A stretch of 64,000 bases of DNA from positions 91,282 through 155,281 of the forward strand of contig CAZRIY010000001.1 in assembly GCA_964600295.1 (NCBI GenBank), in the 5' to 3' direction. How positions within the stretch are numbered: the first letter of the stretch is position 1; each line of letters starts with the position of its first letter. Positions 4,828-62,959 of this stretch are shown in pieces. A model generated the notes under the pieces. That model did no database searches. It saw only the letters and a program-made list of their open reading frames with translations, and was not told where the DNA came from. The position numbers were made by a program, and so were the translations under genes. This stretch comes from an uncultured Candidatus Saccharibacteria bacterium (lineage in GTDB: Bacteria; Patescibacteriota; Saccharimonadia; CAZHVB01).

Positions 4828-4952
4828 TTGATTACCTTTTTAAGATACAAACTACAAGATACAAGTAACAAATTTCCCTTGAGCATGTGGGATGTGGGGT
4901 TTGGTGCCTGGTTGTATCCTTGTTTCTTAGTCATTGTTTCTTGCCCTTCGGG

Positions 4953-6026: not shown

Positions 6027-7798
6027 TACGTCCTCGCGTCCGCCGCTACCCGTTCGACTTCATCTAAGGTCGTAAAACCGGTTAGAGCCTTAAGATAACC
6101 GTCTTCTTGCATGGTTAGCATGCCTTCGGCACGGGCTTGAGCTTCCACCTGACCAGAGGTAGCATGTTGGGTTAATAGTTTTTCTAAGCTATCACTCATA
6201 TTAAAAACCTCGAAGACACCTACTCTGCCGCGGTATCCATTTGGGCATTCTTCACTGTCTTTACCCTTAAATAAAGTATAAGCGTTTTGATCGGACAAGG
6301 GCAAGTTACCGTAGCCATATTCTTTAGCCAGGCGGGGAACATCGGCCTGGTTCTTGGGCAGTAATCTACTAACTTTCTTCTTGATGGCTTGGGTTTGGGT
6401 GGGTGTGCTTTGGAGCGTTTCGTGATCTTTACAGATACGCCTAACCAGACGCTGGGCCATGATAGTATTAACGGTCGAAGCAATCAAAAAGGGTTCTATG
6501 CCCATGTCCAACAAGCGGGGCAAAACACCGGCCGCCGAATTGGTGTGCAAGGTTGAGAGTACCAAATGCCCGGTCAGGGCGGCTTGCACCGCCAAGGTGG
6601 CGGTTTCGTTATCGCGGATCTCACCGACAAGTACGATATCGGGGTCTTGGCGCAAGACCGAGCGCAAACCCGAAGCAAAGGTTAAACCCACCGGCGGATT
6701 AATCTGGATCTGGTTAACACCAGAGATTTTGCGTTCCACTGGATCCTCGAGGGTGACGATATTGATGGTTTCGTCTTTAATCATCTGCAAAATGGTATAG
6801 AGTGTGGATGATTTGCCCGAGCCGGTCGGCCCGGTGGACAGAATCATACCGTGAGGTCGTTTGGAGCCCTCTTGCACCAAGGACAGTGAATGACCGCGCA
6901 AGCCAAGGTCGGCTAGGCTCAGATCCTGATCCTCCTTACTGAGCAGCCGCATCACTACCTGCTCACCCCAGACTACTGGAGATATGGCTACCCTAATATC
7001 AATTTCCTTGCTGGCCGAGGAAATATGGAATTGGCCGTCTTGGGGAACTCGGTGTTCATCAATCTTCATTGCAGACAGAATTTTGACCCGCGATATCAGC
7101 GCCGGTTCGCTGCCTTTGGGTAAGGTCATAATTTCGCGCAACAGGCCGTCGACTCGGACTCGGATGCGAACTTCGTGCTCGGTGGGCTCGATGTGGACAT
7201 CTGAGGCACCGGCCTGGACGGCATAGTCCAAAATGGCCTTGAGCGCCCGGGTAATCGGCGAATCTTGCACCAAGTTGGCTACGGCTTGAGCACTAGTGGT
7301 ACTATCCAAGTCTTTGGGCGTTAAATCGATTCCGCTTATTACGCTGCGCATATCTCCGACATCGGGTTTATAGTGGGCCAGGATACGCTCAATACCGACC
7401 TGGGAGGCCATAAAGACCACAACCGGTCGGCCAATTTTACCGGAAATATAATCAATCGCCTGGATATTGGTAGGATCGAGCATTCCCACCGCCAGCTTGC
7501 CCTCCATATCACCCAATGGTACGGCCTTGTACTGTTGGGCCAAATCTATGGGTAGGGACTTCAAGATCTCCGGTTTGACTGAGGCCTTTTGGAGATTAAC
7601 GTAGGGCACGTTGGTGGCCCTAGCAATCAGCTTGGTTAGCTCCTCGGGATCTATCAGTTTTTTTTCGGTAACTAGGGTCAACAAGGACTTATCGGACTTG
7701 GCGGCCTCGACTTTTAGTTGCTCAAGCTGTGCCTTAGTAACGGCTTTCTTTTCAACCAACCAATCTTCGACTCGGCTCTGGCTCTCGACGGACAGCAC
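6026..7798 (-). CDS. pilB: Type IV pilus extension ATPase PilB (GspE family)
   Basis: The 590-aa product has an N-terminal GSPII_E_N-like domain, a Walker A (GPTGSGKSST) and a tetracysteine region. It uses a GTG start with a GGAGG RBS 9 nt upstream. Confidence 0.9.
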   Translation of the reverse strand: MLSVESQSRVEDWLVEKKAVTKAQLEQLKVEAAKSDKSLLTLVTEKKLIDPEELTKLIARATNVPYVNLQKASVKPEILKSLPIDLAQQYKAVPLGDMEGKLAVGMLDPTNIQAIDYISGKIGRPVVVFMASQVGIERILAHYKPDVGDMRSVISGIDLTPKDLDSTTSAQAVANLVQDSPITRALKAILDYAVQAGASDVHIEPTEHEVRIRVRVDGLLREIMTLPKGSEPALISRVKILSAMKIDEHRVPQDGQFHISSASKEIDIRVAISPVVWGEQVVMRLLSKEDQDLSLADLGLRGHSLSLVQEGSKRPHGMILSTGPTGSGKSSTLYTILQMIKDETINIVTLEDPVERKISGVNQIQINPPVGLTFASGLRSVLRQDPDIVLVGEIRDNETATLAVQAALTGHLVLSTLHTNSAAGVLPRLLDMGIEPFLIASTVNTIMAQRLVRRICKDHETLQSTPTQTQAIKKKVSRLLPKNQADVPRLAKEYGYGNLPLSDQNAYTLFKGKDSEECPNGYRGRVGVFEVFNMSDSLEKLLTQHATSGQVEAQARAEGMLTMQEDGYLKALTGFTTLDEVERVAADART

Positions 7799-7818
7799 CT
7801 AGTCCAAACCTCCAGTTT

Positions 7819-7890
<72 letters not shown>

Positions 7891-7897
7891 TTATGTC

Positions 7898-8164
7898 TTA
7901 TTCGGGGCGGAAAGGATTAGTATTGCCAAAACCCTGACTGAAATCAAAGCTCGGAGAGGAAAAACTGGCGGCTTGGAAACGGTTGTTCCGACCGAGCAGG
8001 ATCTGGCGGGCGGCATCATCAAAATTCGGGTCGATTGGCTGGACAACCTCAATGCTGGCCGTGCGGGCTTTGCCACCGCGGCCAAAACGGCTGACTAGGA
8101 AGGAGCCCAGCGCAACCAGCACAATGCCCAGCACCACTAGAGCCAAAATATCTTTAGTTTTCAT
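7898..8164 (-). CDS. Small membrane-anchored hypothetical protein in the pilus operon (position expected for PilP)
   Basis: The 88-aa product has one N-terminal TM segment (ILALVVLGIVLVALGSFLV). It overlaps the pilO-like stop by 11 nt and is therefore operonic. Confidence 0.4.
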   Translation of the reverse strand: MKTKDILALVVLGIVLVALGSFLVSRFGRGGKARTASIEVVQPIDPNFDDAARQILLGRNNRFQAASFSSPSFDFSQGFGNTNPFRPE

Positions 8165-8789
8165 TTATTTCCTCCGTTTGATCACCAATTTGGGTTAGCG
8201 GCTGCCAATAAGTAGTAAGGGTGACGGATAGGGTTAGCGATGGTTCGCTGCCGCTAAAAGTTAAGGTGTTAAGCCGGATCGGCCGCTTGGAATTCTCCAG
8301 GTTGGTCAGCAGTTGTTGCAACGAGACGTACGTACCGTTGGCGCTTAGCTGAAATACCACCTCTTGGGAGGTGGCTACGCCGCTAGCCATTGGCTGCTCG
8401 CCAGCAACAGCTACTTGAGGGGAGAGCGATTGTAGTTGGACGCCAACTAGCGTGGCGGCGGCTTCTAGTTCGGCTGTCAGCCCTGCGTAATCAGGCGAAT
8501 TCGGTAGCGCCCTAAAGATATCAAAGACCGGCGGACCATTGTCTTCCAGAAACTTAAAGTTCTCCTGAAGTTTGGGTATAGCAGCCACGTTTTCCTCCAG
8601 GGTGTTTTTGGCCGCGTTTTTGCGCGAAATCACCTTATTATTAAAGCCGATATCGCCCAGCCAAGTCTTGGACAGCACAATGCTAATAGCTACCACCAGG
8701 GTGGTCAGGCTCATCAGACCAGCAATTAATCGGTTATTAGTGAGGGTTACTTTGGGATGTAGCAAATGCATCTTCTTCAGCTTAGCCAT
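8154..8789 (-). CDS. pilO: PilO-like pilus assembly protein
   Basis: The 211-aa product has a single N-terminal TM segment followed by a coiled-coil. It sits in the pilM-pilN-pilO position, overlapping the pilN stop. Confidence 0.55.
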   Translation of the reverse strand: MAKLKKMHLLHPKVTLTNNRLIAGLMSLTTLVVAISIVLSKTWLGDIGFNNKVISRKNAAKNTLEENVAAIPKLQENFKFLEDNGPPVFDIFRALPNSPDYAGLTAELEAAATLVGVQLQSLSPQVAVAGEQPMASGVATSQEVVFQLSANGTYVSLQQLLTNLENSKRPIRLNTLTFSGSEPSLTLSVTLTTYWQPLTQIGDQTEEINEN

Positions 8790-9387
8790 TGGGTTCTCCG
8801 TCGATTAGCCTGGCATCAAAGCTGGCCTTGATGGTGAAGTTGACCTCGGAGCCAGACGGTCCACTGGCATTTTCCAGTACCACGCTGGTGAAATAGCCCC
8901 TGATTTGGGGATCATCTTCAACCCGATTGGGATCTTGCAAATCACCAGCAACTAGTAAGGCCCGATAAAGCCTGTCAACTCCGGCATAGCTGGGAGAAAC
9001 TCCGGATAGGGTTAGGCCGCCGCTGGTATCTATTTCGATGTTAGATAACCGGATCTCGGCGGGCAAAACGCTGGGCAAGAAGGCCATTAGCTCTGATACT
9101 ACTAGCCGCTGTTCATAGAGGGATGGCAAAGAGGATAAATGATCTTTAACCGTTAACATGGTGGTGATATTGGGGGTACTCTGCAGTGTGGCTTTGTGCT
9201 GATCAATCCGGTCCTGGGTGCGATTCAGCAATAAGGCTTGGCTGCCTTTGATGGCCAATAACAACACCGGAACGCCGATGGCCACAGCCATAATGATGCT
9301 AGAGATAACAATCGATAACTTGCGGGCGCGTTGGGCGCGCAGACGTACCTGTTTACTGTCTGGTAGCAAGTTTACTTGCTTAACCAT
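8782..9387 (-). CDS. pilN: PilN-like pilus assembly protein
   Basis: The product starts MVKQVNLLPD, the conserved PilN N-terminal motif, then has one TM segment. It lies downstream of pilM. Confidence 0.7.
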   Translation of the reverse strand: MVKQVNLLPDSKQVRLRAQRARKLSIVISSIIMAVAIGVPVLLLAIKGSQALLLNRTQDRIDQHKATLQSTPNITTMLTVKDHLSSLPSLYEQRLVVSELMAFLPSVLPAEIRLSNIEIDTSGGLTLSGVSPSYAGVDRLYRALLVAGDLQDPNRVEDDPQIRGYFTSVVLENASGPSGSEVNFTIKASFDARLIDGEPNG

Positions 9388-9573
9388 GTATCACCTCCCT
9401 GCGGTCGGTGCAATTTCTAATTTCTAAATGGTTCGGCAGGCTCTCCATCCTGAGCACAGGCGAAGGACAAGCACCAATTCCCAATAAACCAACCCCTAAA
9501 CAGTTTGAAATTTGGGATTTTATAAATTGGGATTTGTTTAGGATTTCGGATTTAGACATTAGAGTTTCCTTCA

Positions 9574-10629
9574 TCATTGTCGCTCCCTTAGCGCCAAGCC
9601 GCAAGCTACGGCAAACTGGTTGGACAACTCGGCCAGCTGCCCGGATATGCCGGATCGGCTGCCAATCTTAGCCCACGCATCCCCAATTTCCACCGGCAAA
9701 CCAACGCTGTTGGCCAAATGGGCTGGAAATTCCGGCATCATACCCGCCTTGCCGGTCAATATAATTTTGCTCACTTTGGTGCCTTTGTAATGACCTTCAA
9801 AAAACTTGGTGGATTTATCAATTTCCGACATCAGGGTATCAACGCTTCCCTTGATGGCTTTTCTAACTTGGCTCTCCATCTTTTGAGCTAGACCGAACTT
9901 ATAAACGAATTGGTAGGCCTGATCGGGTTCTAGATTCAGCCCTTGGGCGGCGGCCTTAACAAAATTATTACCGCCGACTGGGATGGAACGAATCATTTTG
10001 AGCGAATGGCCAGCCACTGTTACCAAATCGGTGGCGGTTTCGCCAACGTCCAGCACCGTCACAGCACCGGCTTCTTGGGGTTTAACCAGAGCGCGGGCCA
10101 AAGCGATGGCATCGGGTTCCAGCGCCAAGACCTCTAGATCGGCGGCTTCCAGCACAGCGAGTGTGCGCTCCGACAGACCAATTGGCACGGCTACAATTAG
10201 GACTTCTTGCTGTTTGCCATCTGCGGATTCACCGGCTAGCATCCAGTCCAATTTAACTTTATCTAGCGCCATCGGCACATGCTGTTCGGCTTGGTAGCGA
10301 ATGCCCTTTTCTAGCTCCGAGGGCGCCATTTTGGGTAGACTAATCAATGCCGAGAAAACCTTGGCCGAGGGCAGGCCGGAGACCACATTCTTGGTGGTTA
10401 CCCGGCTATCACTAATGAGTTTTTTGATAGCTTCGACCACCGATTGGCGATCTACTGGGGAATCGCTGGCCATGACTTTGGCTTCCATGGGTACCCAACC
10501 ATAGGTTACCAACTGAGCGCTAGCGCCACTCTTTCTGACTTGAACTAAACGAATACCTGAGGAACCAATATCTAAACCAATTATATTATTGTCGGTTTTA
10601 AACAACGCCATTATCTCCAAGTTTATCAT
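9574..10629 (-). CDS. pilM: Type IV pilus assembly protein PilM (actin-like ATPase fold)
   Basis: The 351-aa product contains IIGLDIGSSGIRLVQV and two actin-like subdomains. A GGAG RBS precedes the start. Confidence 0.85.
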   Translation of the reverse strand: MINLEIMALFKTDNNIIGLDIGSSGIRLVQVRKSGASAQLVTYGWVPMEAKVMASDSPVDRQSVVEAIKKLISDSRVTTKNVVSGLPSAKVFSALISLPKMAPSELEKGIRYQAEQHVPMALDKVKLDWMLAGESADGKQQEVLIVAVPIGLSERTLAVLEAADLEVLALEPDAIALARALVKPQEAGAVTVLDVGETATDLVTVAGHSLKMIRSIPVGGNNFVKAAAQGLNLEPDQAYQFVYKFGLAQKMESQVRKAIKGSVDTLMSEIDKSTKFFEGHYKGTKVSKIILTGKAGMMPEFPAHLANSVGLPVEIGDAWAKIGSRSGISGQLAELSNQFAVACGLALRERQ

Positions 10630-11775: not shown

Positions 11776-14700
11776 CTAGAACACCGGCGGGCGTTCAGAT
11801 TGAGAACGGATCTGGGTGGTAACGCTACCCAATCCAAGGGGTGGGCGCAACAGTAGTTGGGGTACGTAGTTAACGCACTCGGCTGCTTTGTTGCCCACTG
11901 GGCAATCCACGCCGTCAACTCCGGTGCGTACATCGCCAACCGTGCGGCGAAACTGAAAACTGCTGGCCACCAGGGCTCCTTGGACGGTCAAGGGTTGGCC
12001 GCAAGCGGCAGCACCCACGGCAGTGCCAATAGCTATGCCAGTCGGGTCTTGGCAGGTGTTGATAACGCCGCTGCTGCCCGTGCTGCCAGCATAATAAATA
12101 CCGTAGAGGTTTGTGACTATGGGCGAGATATTGATACCCCCGCGGGAAATTACGCCGAAAGAGGGAATGGTATCCCGCCTGAAAGGAAAGCTAGCTGAGA
12201 TATTGCCAACAATTTGTACCGTACCCCCCACTACGAACGTAGTTCTTTTTCCAACTGGTAGGATGCCGCCTAAAATCGTCAGATCACCGTTATATTTGAA
12301 GATACCATCAGGTAGACTGGGGTCGCTAAGATTAACTACACCTGGCGCTGCGAATGGACCTGGATAATCGGCTACAGTGCTGTCAGGAGCGAGGTAGCGG
12401 GCAGCCAGATCCAGTCGGCAGACGCGGCCATAGCCGCCGTGGGGCGAGCTGCGACTGCCAAATTTTAGGCTCAAATCAGTAGGTGAAGTTACAGAGCCGG
12501 CGGAACCAAAGTTATTGATATTGGCCCCGGCTGAAACTACAAAGCTGGCCCTGGAGCCGCGTAGGTCTTGGACACGGCCGCGGACGCTACCGCTACCGGG
12601 GACCAGGCAGGGTGCGCCAAAGTTGGCCCCGGCTTGGACGCTGCCACCCAGGGTGGATAGAACCGGTTTGCGAGAGATTACTACTTTTAGGCACCGAGGT
12701 GTAGGGTCTATGTATTCGGCATTGCTATCGCTATTAGGACTGGCAAAGGCCTGAAAGCAAATGGCCCCAATGTCATCGGAGTCTACAGCGCCATTGAAGT
12801 TGCTATCTAAATAGGTAGGGGCCGTAGGGCTGACGGTAAAGGTGAAAGACACATCTCTTCTACCGCCCGCGGGTAAGTCCGGATAGTGCCAGTGATAACA
12901 AGGGGCCCTGGGGCCACAATCTAGATTATAACCAAAGCTATCGGCCGGCGGCGAAGAAGTGTTGTTGGGTGTCAATGGTGCGGTGGTATACGCGCTGTTT
13001 TGATTCTGCACCCGTAAATACACCGGTAGAGAAGTTGATGCTCCTAAATTTTCTAGCCGTGCATTTATGGTGTAGGGGTTGCCCGGCTCCACCGTGGTAA
13101 AGATGGTTGAGCCATTGGGCGCCAGTCCTTCGGGCAATACATCGCCCTGATTATCAAACGGGGGTGGTAGGGGTGTGGGATAAGCATAGGGTGTGCCGTA
13201 GGCATAGGGTGTGCCGTAGGCATAGGGTGTGCCGTAGGGATAGGGTGTGCCGTAGGGATAGGGTGTGCCGTAGGCATAGGGTGTGCCGTAGACAATGGGT
13301 TCCAGAAAAATGCGGTCTTTGACATTAGGATCCCCATAATTCTCTGACTGGTAAGCACCAAAATAGCTAGAAAAATACGCACCCAGATCATCAATCGACC
13401 TGGTGCGACCGTTTTCGAGTGGTAGATTGCGATAAGCTATAGAATTAAAATTTGGCGCACCGATATCGAAATTCCAGGTAACAAAGCAGTTTAAGCCAGT
13501 GCCGCCGGCATTACCGGAAGGTTCTCCCACCTTAAACCAGTTTGCACTGCGATAGATAGCAGCACCATATTTGCCGCAGGGGTCCGTATTACCTGGAGGT
13601 GGCCCACCTTGATTCGGCGTAACCCAAAAATCATAGATCGCTGGATTTGGCCATACGCCGCTACCAACCCACGCGGTTACGGCCGCCATGGGGTGCTGCG
13701 TACAATGGTCGGGCCCGTGAGTAGCTTTAACTTTGGCTGGCAGCCAAAAGCTCTGCAGCTTGCTTGAGATCTGCTTGAAGATGCGGCTGGTTGTTCGCAG
13801 GGCCTGCCCAACTAATTCCTTGGCTGCCTTTTGTCGCTCTTGGACTAGATATTCCTTTATATAAATTTTGGTGGTCTTTTCCTTTTTGACTGATTCTAGA
13901 AAACCCCTCCAATCTGAATATTGTCCGGTTGTCTTTGCAAGTAACCGGTAAATGGCGTAATAGCCACCGTCGGAGCGAATTAACCCTGTGTGAGAACCAA
14001 TTTCTTGAAGCTGGGCCATTTTTTCCCATTCCTTCATATCCATTAAGTGCAGCGCGGCAGTCTTGGCATTCATACCGGTATCGCCTACCCTATCTACCAC
14101 AAACGAACTCGATTGAGGATCTTTTTGAATCTGCTCAATCTTGCGCGTTATTTCGTCTTGAGAGGCACCATTCTCAAATAGCGGCAGCAGGTCGGATTCC
14201 ACTTTTTGTTTGGCTACAGAATCCCATTCGTCATCGGGATGGGCATCGGAAGCACGCATATCCCATCGGACATAAACACCAAAAAGCGAGCGGCTATCGA
14301 TTAGCACGCTTTCTAACTTGACTCTGAATAGTTGGCTGCGCTCGATGCGCTTTATCAACGCGGCGTCCCAATTCCGACCACTCTGTAAATTAACCTTGGC
14401 CAGGAAAGCGGCTTCGTTGCCGTCGGCCTTGATTAATTCCTGGTAGCGTTGTTCAACTTCTTCGGTGCTAACCGCAATCCCATGTTTAGTGGCTTCATCC
14501 TCTAGAGCCTTTTCCATAATCAGGAAATCTAGAGCATGGAGGTTCAGGGCGAAGAATGGACCGGTATCCTGGTCGTCTTCGGTGCCGGCCAAAAAGCTAA
14601 GTTTAGGCTTGAAGGCTTCATATTCGGCCACGGTAATCTCTTTGCCTCGAACCTCGGCCGCGATCCCGGCTCTCAGTTTGGGGTTCGTAAAGAAATTGCT

Positions 14701-14832
14701 AAGACGAGGCAAAACTGTGTAAGTTGAAAAAATTAGAGCCGCTAATGCCAGGACAAAAATAGCTGCAATAATTCCCAGGCGTAATGGGTAGGCAAGCTTG
14801 CTAAATTTTACCCTTAGTTTTGAAGGCCGCAT
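11776..14832 (-). CDS. Large surface protein with a SurA/PpiD-like N-terminal chaperone-like region, a (YGTPY[AP])n repeat and Cys-containing beta-rich C-terminal domains
   Basis: The 1018-aa product has an N-terminal signal-anchor. Residues ~60-350 are alpha-helical and resemble the SurA N-terminus. The central and C-terminal parts are Gly/Asn/Ser/Thr-rich with paired Cys. Confidence 0.65.
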   Translation of the reverse strand: MRPSKLRVKFSKLAYPLRLGIIAAIFVLALAALIFSTYTVLPRLSNFFTNPKLRAGIAAEVRGKEITVAEYEAFKPKLSFLAGTEDDQDTGPFFALNLHALDFLIMEKALEDEATKHGIAVSTEEVEQRYQELIKADGNEAAFLAKVNLQSGRNWDAALIKRIERSQLFRVKLESVLIDSRSLFGVYVRWDMRASDAHPDDEWDSVAKQKVESDLLPLFENGASQDEITRKIEQIQKDPQSSSFVVDRVGDTGMNAKTAALHLMDMKEWEKMAQLQEIGSHTGLIRSDGGYYAIYRLLAKTTGQYSDWRGFLESVKKEKTTKIYIKEYLVQERQKAAKELVGQALRTTSRIFKQISSKLQSFWLPAKVKATHGPDHCTQHPMAAVTAWVGSGVWPNPAIYDFWVTPNQGGPPPGNTDPCGKYGAAIYRSANWFKVGEPSGNAGGTGLNCFVTWNFDIGAPNFNSIAYRNLPLENGRTRSIDDLGAYFSSYFGAYQSENYGDPNVKDRIFLEPIVYGTPYAYGTPYPYGTPYPYGTPYAYGTPYAYGTPYAYPTPLPPPFDNQGDVLPEGLAPNGSTIFTTVEPGNPYTINARLENLGASTSLPVYLRVQNQNSAYTTAPLTPNNTSSPPADSFGYNLDCGPRAPCYHWHYPDLPAGGRRDVSFTFTVSPTAPTYLDSNFNGAVDSDDIGAICFQAFASPNSDSNAEYIDPTPRCLKVVISRKPVLSTLGGSVQAGANFGAPCLVPGSGSVRGRVQDLRGSRASFVVSAGANINNFGSAGSVTSPTDLSLKFGSRSSPHGGYGRVCRLDLAARYLAPDSTVADYPGPFAAPGVVNLSDPSLPDGIFKYNGDLTILGGILPVGKRTTFVVGGTVQIVGNISASFPFRRDTIPSFGVISRGGINISPIVTNLYGIYYAGSTGSSGVINTCQDPTGIAIGTAVGAAACGQPLTVQGALVASSFQFRRTVGDVRTGVDGVDCPVGNKAAECVNYVPQLLLRPPLGLGSVTTQIRSQSERPPVF
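13184..13291. repeat. Near-perfect 18-bp tandem repeat (6 units) inside the surface-protein gene
   Basis: The unit GCATAGGGTGTGCCGTAG (variant GGATAGGGTGTGCCGTAG) is repeated six times and encodes YGTPYA/YGTPYP on the minus strand. Confidence 0.9.
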
Positions 14833-17976: not shown

Positions 17977-19665
17977 TTGAGCATGAATATTCTAGGGATA
18001 TCGGCTTTTTTCCACGATAGTGCGGCGGCTTTGATAGTAGATGGCCGAGTGGTATGTGCCTTTGAGGAAGAACGCTTTAGCCGCATCAAACACGACAATC
18101 AATTCCCGGTATTAAGTATCCAGCACTGTCTCGATACTGGAGGCCTCTCAGTCAATGATATCGACAGCGTTGTCTATTATGAGAAACCTTTACTAAAGTT
18201 AGAACGCATTTTAGATACCTTTATTCAAACATTTCCTCGTTCGTTGCGCCCATTTGTGGCAAATATGCCCGAAATATTAATTCATAAACTCGACATCGCC
18301 TACACTTTACGCAAAACGATTGGGTTCAGAGGCCAGATATTCTATCTCCCGCACCACTTGTCTCACGCTGCGGCTGCTTTTCTAACATCATCATTTAAAG
18401 AGTCCGCGATATTGACAGTAGATGGTACGGGCGAGTACCAAACAACTGCTCTGTGGGCCGGCAACTCTAGGAGAATAACTGAGCTAGGGTCACTAAATTT
18501 TCCCCATTCTTTGGGTTTGTTCTACTCGACTTTCACTGCTTTTTTGGGCTTTCGGGTTAATGACGACGAGTATAAAGTTATGGGCCTGTCGGCTTACGGT
18601 AAGCCAAGTTTTGTATCCGATATGCGGAGGCTAATAGACATGGCGGCAGACGGTAGCCTGCGTCTCAATATGGACTACTTTGGATTCCAACACTCGGAGC
18701 AAATGTGGGCCCCGGCTTTTGAAAAACTGTTTGGTAGAGCCCGCGCGCGCGGCGACCCAATGACTAAACACCATAAAGATATAGCGGCTAGCGTTCAGGC
18801 TCTGTTTGAGGAGATATATTTTCGAATTCTTAACCATCTCCAGACCCTTACCAACAGCTCCGACCTCTGCCTGGGGGGTGGGGTGGCCTTAAATGCACTA
18901 GCCAATGGCAAAATCTATACTCATACAAAATTCAAACGTGTACACATATTCGGAGCAGCTGGCGATAGTGGTTCGGCGATTGGAGCGGCACTCTACATGT
19001 ATCACCAATTAAATCAGTCCGGCTGGCCGAAGCCAATTACTGGCATGGCGTTGGGGTCAAGTTACAAAGACGCCGAGATTGAAGACTGCTTAGGACAAAC
19101 CCAGCTTAAGTGGGAAAGGGTAGCTCCGAAAAAACTCATTGCCAAAACCGCACAACTCTTGGCGAACGGCAAGGTAGTAGGATGGTTTCAAGGCAAGATG
19201 GAGTTCGGGCCACGCGCACTTGGGTATCGCTCAATCCTGGCAGACCCGCGGCCAGCAGCCATGAAGTCAAAGATTAATAGGATTAAGGGCCGCGAAGCAT
19301 TCCGCCCATTCGGGGGATCCATTATAGATACTGCGACGAATTTATACCTCGAAGCTCCCGGGGGCCTAGTATCACCTTTTATGATTGAGTGTTTCAGAGT
19401 TCGAAGTGCAAAAAAAGATAGTCTGGCTGCGATCACACACTATGATGGCAGTTGCCGCATCCAAACCGTTACGCCCCAAAACGAACGATTTTATCAGTTA
19501 ATCAACGCGTTTAGAGATTTAACTGGTACACCTTGTTTGCTCAATACCAGCTTTAATGTTGCCGGGGAGCCGATGGTAGAACATCCCAGCCAAGCCCTGG
19601 AAGTCTTTGCAACTACGACTTTGGATTATCTCGTAATCGGAAATTTTATGGTGCGCAAGGAATAA
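17977..19665 (+). CDS. Carbamoyltransferase (NodU/CmcH family)
   Basis: The N-terminus is MSMNILGISAFFHDSAAALIVDGRVVCAFEEERFSRIKHDNQFP. The 562-aa product has a Kae1/TsaD-like N-domain and a carbamoyltransferase C-domain. Confidence 0.85.
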   Translation: MSMNILGISAFFHDSAAALIVDGRVVCAFEEERFSRIKHDNQFPVLSIQHCLDTGGLSVNDIDSVVYYEKPLLKLERILDTFIQTFPRSLRPFVANMPEILIHKLDIAYTLRKTIGFRGQIFYLPHHLSHAAAAFLTSSFKESAILTVDGTGEYQTTALWAGNSRRITELGSLNFPHSLGLFYSTFTAFLGFRVNDDEYKVMGLSAYGKPSFVSDMRRLIDMAADGSLRLNMDYFGFQHSEQMWAPAFEKLFGRARARGDPMTKHHKDIAASVQALFEEIYFRILNHLQTLTNSSDLCLGGGVALNALANGKIYTHTKFKRVHIFGAAGDSGSAIGAALYMYHQLNQSGWPKPITGMALGSSYKDAEIEDCLGQTQLKWERVAPKKLIAKTAQLLANGKVVGWFQGKMEFGPRALGYRSILADPRPAAMKSKINRIKGREAFRPFGGSIIDTATNLYLEAPGGLVSPFMIECFRVRSAKKDSLAAITHYDGSCRIQTVTPQNERFYQLINAFRDLTGTPCLLNTSFNVAGEPMVEHPSQALEVFATTTLDYLVIGNFMVRKE

Positions 19666-20563
19666 GCTTTTGGGCAATTAGGTAATCCGCCATTTCTCTG
19701 GCAATGATTTCGTGACCCCGAGTGTTTGGGTGGCCGTCACCCTGAATGATTCCTCCGGAATCATTCAGGCTATCCTGGGATAGTTCGTAATAATAGGTTT
19801 GCGAACGGCCGTCGGCAAAGCTCTTGGCATATTGCTCCAAATTAGAAGCGCGTATATCAAACATTACTAAAGGCTGATTAAAATACTGGCTGGCCGCATG
19901 GAGTGTTTGTGTCTGAAACTGAATATTATCTGCCATAGAATATATATGAGGAGTTTCTTCCGAATCGTCGTGTGATTCTTGGTGATCTTTAAACGGGCGT
20001 GATTGATGATCGCGATCAATTTCGGCTCTTGTCACGAAATCGCTGTCATTAACTTGCCATATGACTAAATCGGGCTTATATTTTTGGCCGCGAAGCCGGT
20101 AGCGTTCAGCGCTATAAGCGATGTCGTAGCCGGGTACACCAAGATTGATGACTTCATATTTAGTAGCGCCCCGACAGGTATAGTTCAACAACTCCGCCAG
20201 TCGTTCTGAATAATTCTCGTTAGCACCTACGTATAAGCCAAAGGTGATTGAATCCCCAAGGCTGATGATTCTGAAGGTGTTGGCTGGTTTCACAACCGTA
20301 TAATCCTGTTGGGCATGCAGACTATCGGCATTGATGCGATACCTAAGATCGCGAACCTCTTTTTGGCCTGTAGCTTGATCGCTATTCGCCTGCAACTCAT
20401 AAAAATTAGCGAACTGGGAACTAGATGCGCTGGCCACGCTAGTTCTGGATATCGGGCTAACGCTTATGTGGGTCTGAAAACTATAATAGGCGTGTATCAC
20501 CAGCAGGGCGACAACAATCACCTCGAGGATAAAAATGTATCCTGTCAGCTCCGGTTTGCGCAT
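19646..20563 (-). CDS. SGNH/GDSL hydrolase family protein with an N-terminal TM anchor
   Basis: Block I is ISLGDSITFG, block III is VNDSD, and block V is DGHPNTRGH. Confidence 0.75.
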   Translation of the reverse strand: MRKPELTGYIFILEVIVVALLVIHAYYSFQTHISVSPISRTSVASASSSQFANFYELQANSDQATGQKEVRDLRYRINADSLHAQQDYTVVKPANTFRIISLGDSITFGLYVGANENYSERLAELLNYTCRGATKYEVINLGVPGYDIAYSAERYRLRGQKYKPDLVIWQVNDSDFVTRAEIDRDHQSRPFKDHQESHDDSEETPHIYSMADNIQFQTQTLHAASQYFNQPLVMFDIRASNLEQYAKSFADGRSQTYYYELSQDSLNDSGGIIQGDGHPNTRGHEIIAREMADYLIAQKLIPCAP

Positions 20564-20621
20564 TACCTAAGATTATAAGTCAAGAAGAGTCCTATATGCT
20601 ACTTGGAAAATCGGCTTTAAA

Positions 20622-20641
20622 TTCAGCGATCGCTGAATTTA
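20622..20641. promoter_or_regulatory. 20-bp perfect palindrome AATTCAGCGATCGCTGAATT in the SGNH/ychF divergent intergenic region
   Basis: This is a perfect inverted repeat centred on GCGATCGC. It lies ~29 nt upstream of a TATAAT-like box (20670-20675) that is itself 10 nt before the ychF ATG. Confidence 0.5.
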
Positions 20642-20685
20642 TAACCAATACGAATGGCTATCCTTTATCTATATAATGATCGGGT

Positions 20686-21795
20686 ATGGGATTATCCGTA
20701 GGCATAGTTGGCTTGCCCAACGTTGGTAAATCGACGCTGTTCAACGCCCTAACCAATAATAAGGTGTTGGCGGCCAATTACCCCTTTGCCACCATTGAAC
20801 CAAATACCGGCGTGGTAGCAGTCCCAGATGAACGGCTGGGCAGGTTAGCCGGCCTTTATAAGCCAGAGAAAATTATCCCCGCCAGCGTGACTTTCGTTGA
20901 TATCGCCGGCTTGGTTAAGGGCGCACACCAGGGCGAAGGACTGGGCAATCAGTTCCTGGCCCATATTCGCGAGGTCAACGTTATCGTCCAAGTAGTTAGG
21001 GTGTTTGCCGATCCCAACGTTAGCCATGTAGCCAACCGAATTCATCCCCAAGATGATATCGAAGTACTCAATACCGAGCTGATTCTGGCCGACCTGCAAA
21101 CTATTGATAAAACGCTAGAGAGACTCAACCGCCAAGCCAAGGGCGAGCACAATCTAAAGGCTGATGTCGAGATACTAAATAAACTCAGAACCGAACTGGA
21201 TAAGGGGCGGCTGGCAATTGCTACCGATTATAGACCAGACGGATTGGAGGCAAATTTGCCCGCAACCTCGACTCTAAAAACTTTTTTGACCCAGTTGTTA
21301 ACTAATAAACCGATTATTTACCTTTTTAACGTCGATGAAGCTGCCCTCAAGGACTCAGCCAAACAACAGCAACTGATGGACAATGTAAATCCGGCACCAG
21401 CCCTCTATTTAGATGCCAAGCTGGAGGCCGAACTGGCCGAGCTAGATCCGGCCGAGGCCAAGGAACTGCTGCAGAGCGTTGGCCAGCAGGATTCAGGGCT
21501 GGAGCAGTTGATCCGGCTTGGTTACAGCACACTGGGTTTGATTACCTTCCTTACGGCCGGCCCTAAGGAAGTTCGAGCCTGGACCATCAAAAAGGGTGCC
21601 AAAGCACCAGAGGCCGCCGGTACGATTCATGGGGACTTTGCCCGCGGCTTCATCGCGGCTGAGGTTACCGGCTTTGATGACTTGATGGCGGCCGGTTCAG
21701 AGACCGCTGCCAAAGCGGCCGGCAAGTTGCGCAGCGAAGGCAAGAATTACCAAGTGGCTGACGGCGACGTTATCGAATTCCGCTTCAACCTCTAA
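20686..21795 (+). CDS. ychF: Ribosome-binding ATPase YchF (Obg-like GTPase family)
   Basis: The product starts MGLSVGIVGLPNVGKSTLFNALT and has a C-terminal TGS domain; it is 369 aa. Confidence 0.9.
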   Translation: MGLSVGIVGLPNVGKSTLFNALTNNKVLAANYPFATIEPNTGVVAVPDERLGRLAGLYKPEKIIPASVTFVDIAGLVKGAHQGEGLGNQFLAHIREVNVIVQVVRVFADPNVSHVANRIHPQDDIEVLNTELILADLQTIDKTLERLNRQAKGEHNLKADVEILNKLRTELDKGRLAIATDYRPDGLEANLPATSTLKTFLTQLLTNKPIIYLFNVDEAALKDSAKQQQLMDNVNPAPALYLDAKLEAELAELDPAEAKELLQSVGQQDSGLEQLIRLGYSTLGLITFLTAGPKEVRAWTIKKGAKAPEAAGTIHGDFARGFIAAEVTGFDDLMAAGSETAAKAAGKLRSEGKNYQVADGDVIEFRFNL

Positions 21796-21831
21796 AGTAC
21801 CGGGAAGTCGAAACGGAAAGTGGCTAAAACA

Positions 21832-21845
21832 TACGCGATCGCGTA
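21832..21845. promoter_or_regulatory. Palindrome TACGCGATCGCGTA immediately upstream of the PaaX-like gene
   Basis: This is a 14-bp perfect palindrome. It shares the 17-mer TACGCGATCGCGTAAAA with the copy at 22428 and lies 11 nt before the start codon. Confidence 0.45.
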
Positions 21846-21856
21846 AAATATAGCCA

Positions 21857-22420
21857 ATGGCGAAAGAAAGTTCAGCAATAATCGATGGGATTTTAAGACT
21901 ACTGGCCACTAGTGGCGCACTGTCGGTAGCTATCTTGCTACCCGGTATGGCACAGGTTTTAGAAAAACCAACACTTAAATTTCTTGACCGTTTAGATGAG
22001 CGCTCCCAAGAACGAGAGCTGCTACGAATATTGGTCTACATGAAGAAACAAAAGCTTGTTGATTCAGAAAGAGGCTACGACCATGGCATCGTGATTACTA
22101 CGCGTGGCCTTAAACGCCTACAGTCTTCTGGTCTAGGACAACTTAAGCTAGTTCAGCCCAAGAAATGGGATAAGAAATGGCGGCTGGTACTCTTCGACAT
22201 TCCAGAACGGCTCAAGAAAGGTCGCGATGCACTCACTCGCAAGTTAAAGACCCTTGGCTTTCACCAACTCCAACGCAGTGTTTGGATTCACCCCTACCCC
22301 TGCAAGGAAGAAATTGGCATTGTTTCGACTGCATATGATGTTGCCAGATACGTTAGCTATATTGAGACTGACCATATTGACCAGCAGCACAAGCTAGTCC
22401 AGAAATTCGGATTGAAATAG
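21857..22420 (+). CDS. PaaX-family-like transcriptional regulator (PaaX_C-type domain)
   Basis: KKWDKKWRLVLFDIPERLKKGRDALTRKLKTLGFHQLQRSVWIHP matches the PaaX C-domain pattern (W-D-G-x-W-h-h-h-F-x-h-P-E...R...L...L...G-F...x-x-W-I-x-P). The N-terminal ~100 aa could form a winged HTH. Confidence 0.5.
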   Translation: MAKESSAIIDGILRLLATSGALSVAILLPGMAQVLEKPTLKFLDRLDERSQERELLRILVYMKKQKLVDSERGYDHGIVITTRGLKRLQSSGLGQLKLVQPKKWDKKWRLVLFDIPERLKKGRDALTRKLKTLGFHQLQRSVWIHPYPCKEEIGIVSTAYDVARYVSYIETDHIDQQHKLVQKFGLK

Positions 22421-22427
22421 TCTAATA

Positions 22428-22445
22428 TTTACGCGATCGCGTAAA
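22428..22445. promoter_or_regulatory. 18-bp perfect palindrome TTTACGCGATCGCGTAAA between the convergent PaaX-like and tlyA genes
   Basis: This is a perfect inverted repeat centred on GCGATCGC, located 8 nt after the PaaX-like stop. Confidence 0.45.
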
Positions 22446-22478
22446 AAATGTCCACTTTGAGCTTAGATCGCTTTGGCA

Positions 22479-23201
22479 TTACTGTGTGGGTTTTAGGAGA
22501 TAGAAGCGTTCAATGTTGCCTTTGGTGCCAGCAATTTTAGAATCAGCTTTGGCGATAATTTGAAACTGGTCTTTGGCCCAAGCTTCAAAATCTTTGAGGA
22601 TCTGGCGGCGGATAGTATCGTTTTTTATAACGCCCTTATGCGTGACATTTGGCTCACCGGTTTCAAATTGGGGCTTAACCATTGCCAGGATCTGTCCATT
22701 CTTGGCCAAGAGCATGATTAAACCGGGCAAGATCAAACGCAGCGAAATAAAGGATACATCCACCACGGCCAGATCGACCGATTCAGGCAGGCTGGTAACC
22801 TGGCGAATATCGGTCTTCTCCATTGATACAACCCGAGAGTCTACTTTTAACTTGGCGGCCAGCTGTTTGGTACCAATATCCACCGCGTAGACCCTGGTGG
22901 CGCCTCGTTGCAGGGCAAAGTCCGTAAACCCGCCGGTCGAGGCGCCGACATCCAATACAACATTATGTTTAAAATCTAGACTCAGTTTGGGAGCTACCGA
23001 AGCCAACTTATAGGCAGCCCGCGATACATAGCGCTCCTTGGTTACTTCGATATCAACTTTCTGATCAATAAGTTGGCCCGGCTGAGTTGCTCGCCGACCG
23101 GAAACTTTAATTTTACCAAGCTTAATCAAAGCCGCTGCCTGAGATCGCGAACCCACCAAACCTCGAATAACCAGTAGTTGATCCAGCCGCAGTCTCAACA
23201 T
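22479..23201 (-). CDS. tlyA: TlyA family rRNA (cytidine-2'-O)-methyltransferase
   Basis: An N-terminal S4 domain (LRLDQLLVIRGLVGSRSQAAALIKLGKIKVSG) is followed by an FtsJ-like SAM-MTase domain (LDVGASTGGFTD). Confidence 0.85.
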   Translation of the reverse strand: MLRLRLDQLLVIRGLVGSRSQAAALIKLGKIKVSGRRATQPGQLIDQKVDIEVTKERYVSRAAYKLASVAPKLSLDFKHNVVLDVGASTGGFTDFALQRGATRVYAVDIGTKQLAAKLKVDSRVVSMEKTDIRQVTSLPESVDLAVVDVSFISLRLILPGLIMLLAKNGQILAMVKPQFETGEPNVTHKGVIKNDTIRRQILKDFEAWAKDQFQIIAKADSKIAGTKGNIERFYLLKPTQ

Positions 23202-33789: not shown

Positions 33790-35103
33790 CTAGGTGCCTG
33801 TGGCTGTGGGGGGCGGCGGCACCACTGGAGGTATAGACGAACTCACCTGTTGGGTGGGCAACGAAGGCGGGGTGGGCATTTGTTGAGTGGCTTCCGCAAC
33901 CGCTCGGCGCGCTGCTTCAATATCCAAATGCGGAGTGGCCTGCCTACCGGTAGGCATGGTCGGTGGACCCGGTTGAACCGGCGGAGACGAAGGAGCGGGC
34001 AGTGGTTTAGTCTGAGCAGAGTCGAATGGTGGCTTGATCGCTTGCAGAGTAGGCTCGATGGGCGCTGGAGGAACGGGATCCGGCTCAGGTGGATTTGGAG
34101 CCGGAGCGGGTGGTTGAAACACCGGTTGCGGGGGTGGTACGGCTAGTGGCGTTGGTTTAGTAGGATGGTATTGGTTGGACTGGTCTGGCTTGGGTGATTG
34201 TTTGTCTGGCGCATCGTGTTTGCTATGATCAGATTTTTGTTTATGCTCGTGGTGCGCCAAGTCTTTCTCTACGGCTGGTGCCAGTTCGTTATCTGATTTG
34301 GGGGCGTGATCTTTAGTCTTATCTGGAATCTGGGCGTGAGACGGAGGCTCTTGACCTAGATTTTTGACAACAGTCGCCTGGTCGGCTCCAGCCGCCATTA
34401 GCTGAGCTGCCATAGTCATTACTTTGGGCGTCGTGCCTGGGCCCGTAAAGTGGTTGGTAGCGGCCACAATGCCGGTCAATAGCGAAGTGGCAATTTGGTT
34501 ATCAAGCAATCCTGGCTGCAACGCTTCGCTTAAACTCATTAACATCTCGCTGATTGAACTGGCCTGGGGTTCAATCCATGCCACTCTATCACTTCCACCG
34601 GCAGGATTTCCGTTGGTATTAATGGCAACCAAGCGAATCTTGGAAAGTAGTTGTCGTTGGTGGGCAATGGCTGGATCGAGATCTTGGGCCGATTCTGCCC
34701 CTACAGCTACCACGGCGTCACAATGAAAATCGCCGTAGGAATATCCCAAATCGTCTTTATTAAAATTACCGTTAAAGGGTGTGATAATAATTTTCAGCCG
34801 GCCTTCCTCGGGAATGTATTTAAGTTTATCGGCCTCGGCTTTACTAGTATCCAGCTCGATCACAAAATCGCGAACACCTTTGTATTCTTTGTGCAGCAGA
34901 TTGGTAGCCAAAAAATTGAGCTCGGCCGGTATAGCCGTGGAAATGATCGCTTCGACTCGTTTGCCCATTTTTTCTAGCATCTGGGTAAGAGCCAAGACCG
35001 CCGCAATTTCGTCCAAACCGGGTGATTTGGACGTTGTTACCACCAAGCTGTTGGCTTGGCGCAATATCTCGCTTACCTGCTGCTTTTGAGTTTGCTCATC
35101 CAT
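33790..35103 (-). CDS. DHH-family phosphoesterase-like protein (NrnA-like, motifs possibly degenerate) with a Pro-rich C-terminal tail
   Basis: The N-terminal ~300 aa has DHH/DHHA1-like topology and ends near GxGGH-like GPGTTPKV, but the canonical DHH triad is not evident. The C-terminal ~130 aa are Pro/Gln-rich and low complexity. Confidence 0.45.
   Translation of the reverse strand: MDEQTQKQQVSEILRQANSLVVTTSKSPGLDEIAAVLALTQMLEKMGKRVEAIISTAIPAELNFLATNLLHKEYKGVRDFVIELDTSKAEADKLKYIPEEGRLKIIITPFNGNFNKDDLGYSYGDFHCDAVVAVGAESAQDLDPAIAHQRQLLSKIRLVAINTNGNPAGGSDRVAWIEPQASSISEMLMSLSEALQPGLLDNQIATSLLTGIVAATNHFTGPGTTPKVMTMAAQLMAAGADQATVVKNLGQEPPSHAQIPDKTKDHAPKSDNELAPAVEKDLAHHEHKQKSDHSKHDAPDKQSPKPDQSNQYHPTKPTPLAVPPPQPVFQPPAPAPNPPEPDPVPPAPIEPTLQAIKPPFDSAQTKPLPAPSSPPVQPGPPTMPTGRQATPHLDIEAARRAVAEATQQMPTPPSLPTQQVSSSIPPVVPPPPTATGT
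33947..33969. repeat. In-frame copy of the palindromic element (TGCCTACCGGTAGGCA core), encoding MPTGRQAT in the DHH-like protein tail
   Basis: The sequence GGCCTGCCTACCGGTAGGCATGG contains a 16-bp perfect palindrome. Confidence 0.6.
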
Positions 35104-35213: not shown

Positions 35214-35591
35214 ATGCCTGTTACTAAATCGGCCGCTAAAGCCGCCCGCCAGAATTTGCGCCGTTATAAGCGCAATCTTAAGCTAAAAAACCGCGTCAAA
35301 GGCGAGGTTAAGGCTCTAATTGCCGCCATTGCAGCTAGTGATACCAAGGCCACCACCGAAAAGCTCAAAACCGCACAGTCAACGCTGGATAAAGCCGCTA
35401 AAACCGGTGTTATTCATGCCAATAAAGCCGCCCGCCAAAAATCTCGGTTGGCTAAGTTGGCTAGTGGCAAAACTAAAGCCGCCACAACCACATCCAAGGC
35501 ACAGGCCAAACCTATCTTGCCTACCGGCAGGCAGGCAACCAAAGCCACCCCTAAACCCGCACCCAAAACTGCTGCCAAGAAAGCTTCTTAG
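35214..35591 (+). CDS. rpsT: 30S ribosomal protein S20 with a Lys/Ala-rich C-terminal extension
   Basis: The product starts MPVTKSAAKAARQNLRRYKRNLKLKNRVK. The ORF table begins at 35160, but the S20 homology starts at the ATG at 35214. It is adjacent to holA, as in Firmicutes. Confidence 0.85.
   Translation: MPVTKSAAKAARQNLRRYKRNLKLKNRVKGEVKALIAAIAASDTKATTEKLKTAQSTLDKAAKTGVIHANKAARQKSRLAKLASGKTKAATTTSKAQAKPILPTGRQATKATPKPAPKTAAKKAS
35517..35540. repeat. In-frame copy of the palindromic element inside the rpsT tail, encoding LPTGRQAT
   Basis: The sequence is TTGCCTACCGGCAGGCAGGCAACC. Confidence 0.6.
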
Positions 35592-62889: not shown

Positions 62890-62935
62890 GTTTTTTATCT
62901 TACCGCGCGCGTCACTTGGTTTCTAGCCTGCCTGC

Positions 62936-62959
62936 CGGCAGGCAGGCTGGTTGCTTAGT
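62936..62959. promoter_or_regulatory. 24-bp perfect palindrome AGCCTGCCTGCCGGCAGGCAGGCT in the murE-like/tsaD divergent intergenic region
   Basis: This perfect inverted repeat is the full-length form of the element seen in-frame at 2092, 33947 and 35517. Confidence 0.6.

Follow-up and report, generated by a model that had tools for sequence, protein, structure and literature searches.

Palindromes around ychF and a small PaaX-like gene

We analyzed a 64,000-nt stretch of DNA (hereafter the window) from an uncultured Candidatus Saccharibacteria bacterium, with a focus on three palindromes that have the central octamer GCGATCGC in common and lie beside ychF and a gene for a 187-aa PaaX-like protein, here named mini-PaaX. 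An earlier, sequence-only reading had described three perfect palindromes centered on this octamer, all of them intergenic, and this was borne out at 20618-20641, 21832-21845 and 22428-22445. The first of these is real, but its reported coordinates were 2 nt off: the 20-mer given for it occupies 20620-20639, and the full palindrome is 24 nt long. Each palindrome lies within a longer dyad, and we named these dyads site 1, site 2 and site 3. Together with the surrounding genes and promoter elements, they are arranged as follows.

19646-20563, minus strand: GDSL-family hydrolase gene, divergent from ychF
20572-20577, minus strand: TATAAT box of the GDSL gene, 8 nt before its ATG
20613-20646 (34-36 bp, ~20612-20647), no strand: site 1, extended dyad GGCTTTAAATTCAGCGATCGCTGAATTTATAACC, with the perfect 24-nt core TAAATTCAGCGATCGCTGAATTTA at 20618-20641
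20672-20677, plus strand: TATAAT box of ychF, 8 nt before its ATG, of leaderless type with a predicted transcription start
20686-21795, plus strand: ychF, ribosome-binding ATPase/GTPase (Pfam YchF-GTPase_C and MMR_HSR1)
21821-22453, plus strand: palindrome-gene-palindrome cassette, between ychF and tlyA
21821-21856, no strand: site 2, 36-bp dyad TGGCTA-AAACA-TACGCGATCGCGTA-AAATA-TAGCCA, with the core TACGCGATCGCGTA at 21832-21845
21844-21849, plus strand: TAAAAT, -10-like box in the right arm of site 2, 7 nt before the mini-PaaX ATG
21857-22420, plus strand: mini-PaaX gene, 187 aa (Pfam PF20803, PaaX_M)
22420-22453, no strand: site 3, downstream dyad copy, with the perfect 18-nt palindrome TTTACGCGATCGCGTAAA at 22428-22445
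22479-23201, minus strand: tlyA-type rRNA methyltransferase gene (Pfam FtsJ and S4), convergent with the mini-PaaX gene, with efp beyond

The window contains five copies of the octamer GCGATCGC, with 1.1 expected, a count that was reached in 0 of 100 shuffles. Three of the five copies are the centers of the perfect intergenic palindromes. The other two, at 28069 (RNase J gene) and 61756 (Mur-ligase gene), contradict the statement in the sequence-only reading that no further copy exists in the 64 kb; both are coding, have no palindromic extension and look like chance occurrences. Once the three dyads are set aside, the count is 2 against 1.1 expected, that is, at chance level. The window has four perfect palindromes of at least 18 nt (0.23 expected), of which three reach 22 nt or more (0.03 expected). 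A chance origin of the three intergenic palindromes is excluded.

The three sites also resemble one another beyond the octamer. Sites 2 and 3, which are 598 bp apart, have the 17-mer TACGCGATCGCGTAAAA in common, and sites 1 and 2 agree at 7 of 8 outer positions with the same spacing. A repeat finder independently placed all three sites in a single 41-nt family (D4). We derived the 34-bp dyad pattern GGCT-N9-GCGATCGC-N9-AGCC from site 2, where it has 0 mismatches; site 1 departs from it at one position and site 3 at three (0.31 matches expected per window). Relative to the mini-PaaX gene, the core palindrome of site 2 stops 11 nt ahead of the ATG at 21857 and the 36-bp dyad 1 nt ahead of it, while the palindrome of site 3 begins 7 nt past the stop codon, which ends at 22420.

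Domains and predicted fold of mini-PaaX

The sole Pfam match of the 187-aa protein was PaaX_M, the Cas2-like central domain (PF20803, E=2.8e-23, residues 102-178). The protein failed the full-length PaaX model TIGR02277 (31.2 bits, cutoff 264.6) and the Cas2 model TIGR01573 (18.9 bits, cutoff 24.5). Pfam gave no match to the PaaX C-terminal domain, and the protein ends at residue 187. In an AlphaFold2 model (62 homologues, pLDDT 82), a winged helix with the order helix, helix, beta hairpin, helix (residues ~37-91) is followed by a ferredoxin-like domain. The top Foldseek match was E. coli PaaX (8a39, E=3.7e-4, 184 aligned columns, probability 1.00), and further matches were, in order, Rv0674 and then Cas2 proteins. 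A sequence search of the PDB returned only Cas2 3exc (E=0.003) and, more weakly, TubR (E=0.09); we did not build on the latter. As predicted by these searches and by the model, the protein is a two-domain mini-PaaX, made of a winged helix and a Cas2-like dimerisation domain without the PaaX C-domain, and judged by domain and fold it is a PaaX-type DNA binder.

We considered a transmembrane helix at the hydrophobic N-terminus (residues 13-33) and rejected it, because these residues correspond in the alignment to the first helices of the PaaX winged-helix domain. Pfam gave no transposase domain, no recognisable recombinase or HUH motif is present in mini-PaaX, and the repeat finder detected no CRISPR-like repeat array in the 64 kb. 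There are no paa catabolic genes near the mini-PaaX gene, whose neighbors are ychF, tlyA, efp and the GDSL hydrolase gene; the contexts of its homologues are of the housekeeping kind as well, and unrelated to one another. Its GC content is 45.6%, compared with 48-52% in the neighboring genes, and its GC at third codon positions 45%, compared with 51-58%, a contrast in base composition that is suggestive at most.

Matching dyads accompany mini-PaaX genes in unrelated neighborhoods

The mini-PaaX family comprises 1157 clusters at 50% identity (E<=1e-30), nearly all of ~180-200 aa, and 3754 at E<=1e-10. A scan with one genome per species gave more than 596 relatives, from which 80 loci were retained. 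These loci (designated by L numbers) come from Saccharibacteria, Parcubacteria, Doudna-, Giovannoni-, Gottesman-, Uhr- and Azambacteria and others; a single genome often has several paralogues. Homologues with 49-61% identity on long contigs, the closest at 54-61%, were found in five unrelated neighborhoods, namely beside ndk and a tRNA gene, beside gap, beside an RNase H-like gene, beside parAB and beside recA-recX. Each of them has its own palindrome on both flanks, among them the following.

L001 and L087: TTTACGCGGCCGCGTAAA
L003: AAATAGATTAGACGGCCGTCTAATCTATTT
L085: TAAATTCTGCGATCGCTTAAAT
L086: AAATTCAGCGATCGCGTA upstream, AAACTACGCGATCGCGTAGTTT downstream

For each of the 80 loci, we aligned the 150 nt before the gene without gaps to the 150 nt after it and compared the best match with that in 40 control windows of the locus. 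The two flanks surpassed all 40 controls in 62 of the 80 loci, with typical scores of 15-39 against a control mean of ~8. Within 170 nt of family genes, the density of long dyads was 2.15/kb, compared with a background of 0.074/kb elsewhere in the same loci and 0.060/kb in 0.55 Mb of ychF loci without the gene, corresponding to an enrichment of ~30-fold. The median dyad in the family spans 34 bp; at the median, the upstream dyad ends 13 nt ahead of the start codon and the downstream one begins 14 nt past the stop codon. The sequence-only reading had proposed a comparison of genomes to see whether the dyads travel with the regulator gene; with flanking copies at 62 of 80 homologues, in unrelated neighborhoods, they do.

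The centers of the 91 family dyads with a score of at least 7 were distributed as follows.

GCGATCGC: 18 of 91 dyads
GCTATAGC: 10 of 91 dyads
GCGATAGC or GCTATCGC: 16 of 91 dyads
ACGATCGT: 6 of 91 dyads
CGGCCG-type centers: ~10 of 91 dyads
other centers (CCATGG, CATATG, CAATTG and so on): the remainder

The central hexamer is nearly always C-NNNN-G, and the center is the most conserved and most symmetric part of the dyad. The arms vary from locus to locus, and the dyad changes together with the protein. When two proteins are more than ~70% identical, the core is the same (L001/L087, L010/L011, L023/L028/L043, L044/L065, L067/L084 and L020/L063); below that identity, the arms or the core differ. 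The promoter dyads (36 nt) of L001 and L087 are identical at 36 of 37 positions, in two loci where the proteins are 76% identical and synonymous sites have diverged. This near-identity despite divergence of the coding sequence indicates that the dyad sequence is under strong selection.

The flank copies that are asymmetric stand in direct orientation in 20 loci and in inverted orientation in 10, a mixture that fits a two-fold symmetric binder and argues against ends of the att type or the terminal-inverted-repeat type. It had also been proposed that Dam-type methylation of GATC within the palindromes could modulate binding. This idea was not supported in the comparison, since cores free of GATC (TATA, GGCC, CATG) are frequent among homologues and GATC occurs in the window at about its expected frequency (observed/expected 1.13). 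On this comparative evidence, methylation control is not a trait of the mini-PaaX family.

Site 2 coincides with the putative promoter of the mini-PaaX gene

Site 2 covers positions -36 to -1 relative to the mini-PaaX ATG. Its left end, TGGCTA, is -35-like and lies 17 nt upstream of the TAAAAT box in its right arm. No Shine-Dalgarno motif was found at the mini-PaaX start. A -10-like box in the right arm, 6-8 nt before the ATG, is present in the window and in L001, L003, L005, L075 and L087. In L003 and L005, the downstream copy of the dyad is a perfect palindrome, and the upstream copy deviates from it exactly where TATAAT or TAAAAT arises. Among the 22 loci with a dyad no more than 15 nt from the start, TAnnnT was found 5-9 nt before the start codon in 19 and a Shine-Dalgarno-like motif in one.

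Leaderless-looking genes make up 47 of 82 in the family versus 15 of 60 in the window. The 15 window starts with TAnnnT 5-9 nt upstream and no Shine-Dalgarno motif include those at 20564-20577, 20672-20685 and 21844-21856, and a further 20 of the 60 starts have a Shine-Dalgarno-like motif. This distribution suggests that leaderless mRNAs are frequent in this organism. Taken together, site 2 is a predicted autoregulatory operator, and its overlap with the promoter fits autorepression.

The downstream copy is predicted to be a second operator

The mini-PaaX gene and tlyA converge on site 3, which separates their 3' ends. Such a position is common in the family: the downstream copy stands between convergent genes in about half of the loci, with the next gene convergent in 22 and co-directional in 19. 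Because the next gene is convergent in 22 loci, the downstream copy belongs to the regulator gene and not to the promoter of the next gene. We infer that it is a second operator of the same protein, which could act via looping or as a roadblock. The long shared stretches in L038, L045, L055 and L063, which take in non-palindromic positions, indicate that the two flank copies are also homogenised by copying.

Site 1 and ychF

Site 1 is a solo dyad in the 122-bp divergent intergenic region of the GDSL gene and ychF. As a dyad of 34-36 bp it extends from about -74 to -39 relative to the ychF ATG and abuts the -35 position. The sequence-only reading had placed it over the -35 region of a near-leaderless ychF promoter with a TATAAT-like box 10 nt before the ATG. 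Of this, the box was confirmed, 8 nt before the ATG; the 24-nt palindrome ends 7 nt upstream of the place expected for a -35 hexamer (20649-20654), and only the extended dyad reaches up to it. We found no second mini-PaaX family member in the 64-kb window, so site 1 does not flank a paralogue there. It is best read as a putative solo operator for mini-PaaX, most likely acting on ychF.

Related solo dyads and half-sites were found in other loci. The half-site of site 1, AAATTCAGCGAT, recurs at the flanks of L085 and L086 and in the solo site of L011. The upstream dyad of L086 is a hybrid of the half-sites of site 1 and site 2. Crossover within the core during integration would be expected to leave hybrid arms on either side of the gene, and in L086 the hybrid is present upstream only. 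In the genome where TACGCGATCGCGTA flanks the L005 paralogue, a solo AAAATTCAGCGATCGCTGGATTTT is found near L011. Six loci contain solo palindromes that look like the local flank dyad, namely L009, L011, L019, L026, L032 (two copies) and L082. The two in L032, at L032:4072-4109 and L032:11444-11487, are perfect palindromes of 38-44 nt with the core TTGACACGATCGTGTCAA, as in the flanks of the local mini-PaaX gene; they flank a gene for a 2103-aa protein (4181-10492, minus strand) and are 1.2-8.6 kb from the regulator gene.

A conserved ychF operator was considered and rejected, as a dyad of at least 16 nt was found upstream in just 3 of 78 ychF loci. On L153, a high-GC contig unlike DNA of the Candidate Phyla Radiation (CPR), GGCCGCGATCGCGGCC lies at L153:85-100, 112 nt upstream of ychF; this occurrence is probably coincidental. 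Besides the window, ychF stands directly beside a mini-PaaX family gene in 4 of the 80 family loci (L026, L073, L075 and L081), and in L075 the downstream dyad is 64 nt before ychF. We estimate that this adjacency is far above chance for a single-copy gene. The link to ychF is lineage-specific, because none of 80 sampled ychF loci carries a family gene.

The palindrome-gene-palindrome unit was inserted between ychF and tlyA

The sampled ychF loci just mentioned are metagenome loci whose YchF is 53-60% identical to that of the window. The order of ychF followed by convergent tlyA and efp is kept in 21 related loci, and in 6 of these 21 the genes ychF and tlyA abut, being separated by -4 to 30 nt. 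In the window the gap is 683 nt and is filled by the palindrome-gene-palindrome unit. Because relatives have ychF abutting tlyA without a family gene, the unit was inserted as a cassette. Elsewhere in the family, the homology of L001 and L087 is confined to 9964-10605, which runs from palindrome to palindrome. A cassette boundary had been the second idea of the sequence-only reading, and the empty ychF-tlyA junctions and the homology that ends at the palindromes both speak for it.

Two pairs of family loci are syntenic on both sides, L010/L011 at 91% identity and L020/L063 at 74% identity, and paralogues within one genome are divergent and have different dyads. These comparisons point to a unit that relocates, but rarely. 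Beside sites 2 and 3, we saw no target-site duplication. A phage origin was considered and rejected, as 2.9 million viral contigs gave a single weak family match.

A model of mini-PaaX regulation and its alternatives

We consider it probable that the three palindromes are operators of the dimeric mini-PaaX encoded at 21857-22420. The sequence-only reading had proposed operators for a dimeric repressor, plausibly the PaaX-like protein itself, and the comparative evidence supports it, through matched flanks (62 of 80 loci), dyads that change together with the protein, and promoter overlap. The recognition unit would be the ~34-36 bp dyad GGCT-N9-GCGATCGC-N9-AGCC, with a long span like that of the E. 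coli PaaX operator, and this PaaX-type geometry would account for the unusual length of the palindromes. Site 2 would span the entire leaderless core promoter of the regulator, from TGGCTA over TAAAAT to the ATG at about +1, and a dimer bound there (about -35 to +1) would exclude RNA polymerase, resulting in autorepression. Site 3 may cooperate with site 2 via a dimer-dimer loop that encloses the gene; alternatively, as a roadblock, it may shield the gene from transcription that enters from convergent tlyA. Site 1 would probably place ychF, and perhaps also the divergent GDSL gene, under mini-PaaX control. The arrangement operator-gene-operator would then be a compact autonomous unit that is occasionally relocated, in this case between ychF and tlyA.

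Several points weigh against this model. The evidence for it is entirely comparative, and 18 of the 80 loci had no significant shared flank in the 150-nt flank test. Some family dyads are 44-60 bp long, which is long even for PaaX, and the conserved center GCGATCGC lies where a widely spaced winged-helix dimer is not expected to read bases. Site 3 would be a second operator at the 3' end of a gene, a position without a proven role, and its outer arms are poor (3 mismatches). Site 1 lies upstream of the core promoters and is not a conserved ychF feature, with any upstream dyad of at least 16 nt in only 3 of 78 ychF loci. Finally, flank copies in L038, L045, L055 and L063 are identical over 32-41 nt including non-palindromic positions, an extent that exceeds the needs of protein contact and implies copying or gene conversion.

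One alternative reads the palindromes as ends or recombination sites of a small mobile cassette, excised and re-inserted by the PaaX/Cas2-like protein or by host recombination. Solo palindromes such as site 1 would then be landing pads or scars. We regard this as unlikely, although it is compatible with the operator model. It is favored by the ychF-tlyA junctions that abut in 6 related loci, together with the absence of the gene from the 80 ychF loci, by the L001/L087 homology limited to the interval between the palindromes, and by the different context of each of the five closest homologues. The tight packaging (median dyad-gene gaps of ~13-14 nt), the identity that reaches into non-palindromic flanks, the solo look-alikes in the six loci listed above and the random orientation of the gene to its neighbors (19 co-directional versus 22 convergent downstream) point the same way. 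However, no identical multi-copy elements were found, within-genome paralogues being divergent with different dyads, and the pairs at 74-91% identity are syntenic on both sides, which makes movement rare. No recombinase, HUH or transposase motif was recognised, and the Cas2-like domain is a dimerisation module in PaaX. The repeat orientation is unfixed (20 direct versus 10 inverted), sites 2 and 3 show no target-site duplication, and the family is nearly absent from viral contigs (1 match). That the unit is a self-contained, occasionally mobile operator cassette which moves between its own solo sites, by action of the protein or by recombination, seems to us quite unlikely. If true, such an operator cassette would represent a minimal element of a new kind, either selfish or domesticated, and Cas2-like proteins might be linked in evolution to palindromic repeats.

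Two further readings take the palindromes out of the hands of mini-PaaX. In one, the sites belong to another factor or process, for instance as sites of a second DNA-binding protein, as targets of Dam or of a restriction-modification system, or as copies of a HIP1-like over-represented 8-mer, and the proximity to the gene is incidental. The over-representation of GCGATCGC in the window (5 versus 1.1 expected) agrees with this, and a core common to distant family members with differing arms could mean that a host factor reads the center. Yet without the three dyads the 8-mer is at chance (2 versus 1.1), the dyads follow the gene in 62 of 80 loci and change with the protein, GATC-free cores are common with GATC at an observed/expected ratio of 1.13, and one copy per 12.8 kb contrasts with HIP1, which occurs about once per kb in cyanobacteria. 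We therefore hold this reading to be very unlikely.

In the other, the palindromes function at the RNA level as hairpins, whether as intrinsic (bidirectional) terminators or as stem-loops for stabilising or processing the 5' or 3' ends of mRNA, which we judge highly improbable. Sites 1 and 2 do fold into hairpins, with -13.7 and -19.3 kcal/mol on the two strands of site 1 (z ~-5) and -13.8 kcal/mol for the site 2 region (z = -3.9). A terminator consensus scan flagged site 2 as terminator-like on the minus strand, the downstream copies stand just past the stop codon, and terminator polarity (A-tract, GC core, T-tract) exists in L005, L043 and L084. In the window, however, the polarity is wrong, with a T-run 5' and an A-run 3' of the core on both strands. 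Site 3, with AAAAAA after it on the plus strand and TATTAG after it on the minus strand, folds weakly (-7.3 kcal/mol, z = -1.7) and was not called in the scan. An intrinsic terminator was rejected on the grounds of this polarity and the weak fold of site 3. A selected RNA hairpin was likewise rejected, since the arm mismatches (40 G/T versus 31 A/C, and many transversions) have no G-U bias. Further, the center, which would be the loop, is the most conserved and symmetric part, the upstream copy holds the -10 box and would be mostly untranscribed, and a terminator has no need of identity with the promoter sequence of its own gene. The sites gave no match to Rfam families or tRNAs. We retain the operator model as the most probable account of the three palindromes.

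Relation to known systems

PaaX, our reference, is the phenylacetyl-CoA-responsive repressor of E. coli and Pseudomonas (COG3327, TIGR02277; PDB 8a39, 3l09). Its operator in E. coli is TGATTC-N27-GAATCA (39 bp), and it exerts autorepression via steric hindrance (PMC9493321). Like PaaX, mini-PaaX is predicted to combine a winged helix at the N-terminus with a Cas2-like dimerisation domain after it and, at the level of sequence, to have a long dyad operator (~34-39 bp) over its own promoter. Unlike PaaX, it has 187 aa instead of ~305-316 aa and no C-terminal PaaX domain, has no paa genes nearby and no predictable CoA-ester effector, and is found in CPR hosts with a leaderless-looking mRNA. Its dyads also differ, in a GC-rich conserved center and in the putative second operator past the stop codon. 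Cas2 itself is without the extra winged-helix domain.

Operator copies hundreds of bp apart, with one at the promoter, as at sites 2 and 3, are known from LacI (O1/O2/O3), GalR (OE/OI), DeoR and lambda CI (OL/OR). In contrast to these looping repressors, the second putative operator of mini-PaaX lies at the 3' end of the regulator's own gene, family-wide, and looping is here a model. A small gene between palindromic repeats, with a few solo intergenic palindromes, is also the arrangement of REP/RAYT (tnpA-REP) and of IS200/IS605 ends. The cassette differs from REP/RAYT in having no HUH/Y1 nuclease, three copies in the window instead of dozens, few solo copies within 10 kb on either side, an unfixed orientation and an upstream repeat that appears to be the promoter. 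With pdif modules, XerC/D-dependent elements and integron cassettes, it has in common a small gene between imperfect palindromes in varying contexts; unlike in those systems, the arms vary by genome and co-vary with the cassette's own protein and not with a conserved host recombinase, and no integrase is linked to it in the window. The core octamer GCGATCGC is identical to HIP1 of cyanobacteria, as the sequence-only reading had remarked. The analogy does not extend further, with 5 copies per 64 kb, 3 of them in dyads tied to one gene family, and with a lineage that is related to CPR bacteria and not to cyanobacteria.

In the library that we searched, we found no description of the mini-PaaX family or of its bracketing palindromes, and no paper there treats PaaX together with Patescibacteria or with Cas2-like proteins. 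As far as we found, a gene bracketed by two predicted operators of its own (~34 bp), with a leaderless promoter inside the dyad and occasional cassette-like relocation, is apparently undescribed. If the bracketing rule is true, operator motifs could be read from the sequence for hundreds of regulators. Solo sites, and hence regulons, could then be searched genome by genome, and orthogonal protein-operator pairs could be tested in vitro; in the window, the candidate solo target is ychF. CPR bacteria (Patescibacteria) have tiny genomes, and to our knowledge almost nothing is known of their gene regulation. Mini-PaaX and its palindromes would offer a testable regulator/target pair in ultrasmall bacteria of the CPR/Saccharibacteria type.

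Other palindromes and repeats in the window

A second palindrome family, TGCCT(G/A)CCGG(C/T)AGGCA, has four copies in the window, at 2092-2111, 33937-33956, 35514-35533 and 62925-62948. The last of these, where the Mur-ligase and tsaD-like genes diverge, is a perfect palindrome of 24 nt between the two genes. An identical 20-mer of this family, CCTGCCTGCCGGCAGGCAGG, was found at L037:7487-7506 and at L038:3149-3168, in Gottesmanbacteria and in another Saccharibacteria locus, in unrelated contexts. The family could be the operator of another conserved factor.

At 45478-45527, a 22-nt perfect palindrome, CGCTTAACCGATCGGTTAAGCG, is preceded by TCGCTTAAGCGA and followed by TTTTTT, on the antisense strand of the coding region of dnaG (primase); it looks like an intrinsic terminator pointing into dnaG. 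At 13153-13318, an 18-nt unit, GGGTGTGCCGTAGGCATA, is repeated in tandem in ~9 copies within an open reading frame of 1018 aa (11776-14832, minus strand), where it encodes a six-residue protein repeat.

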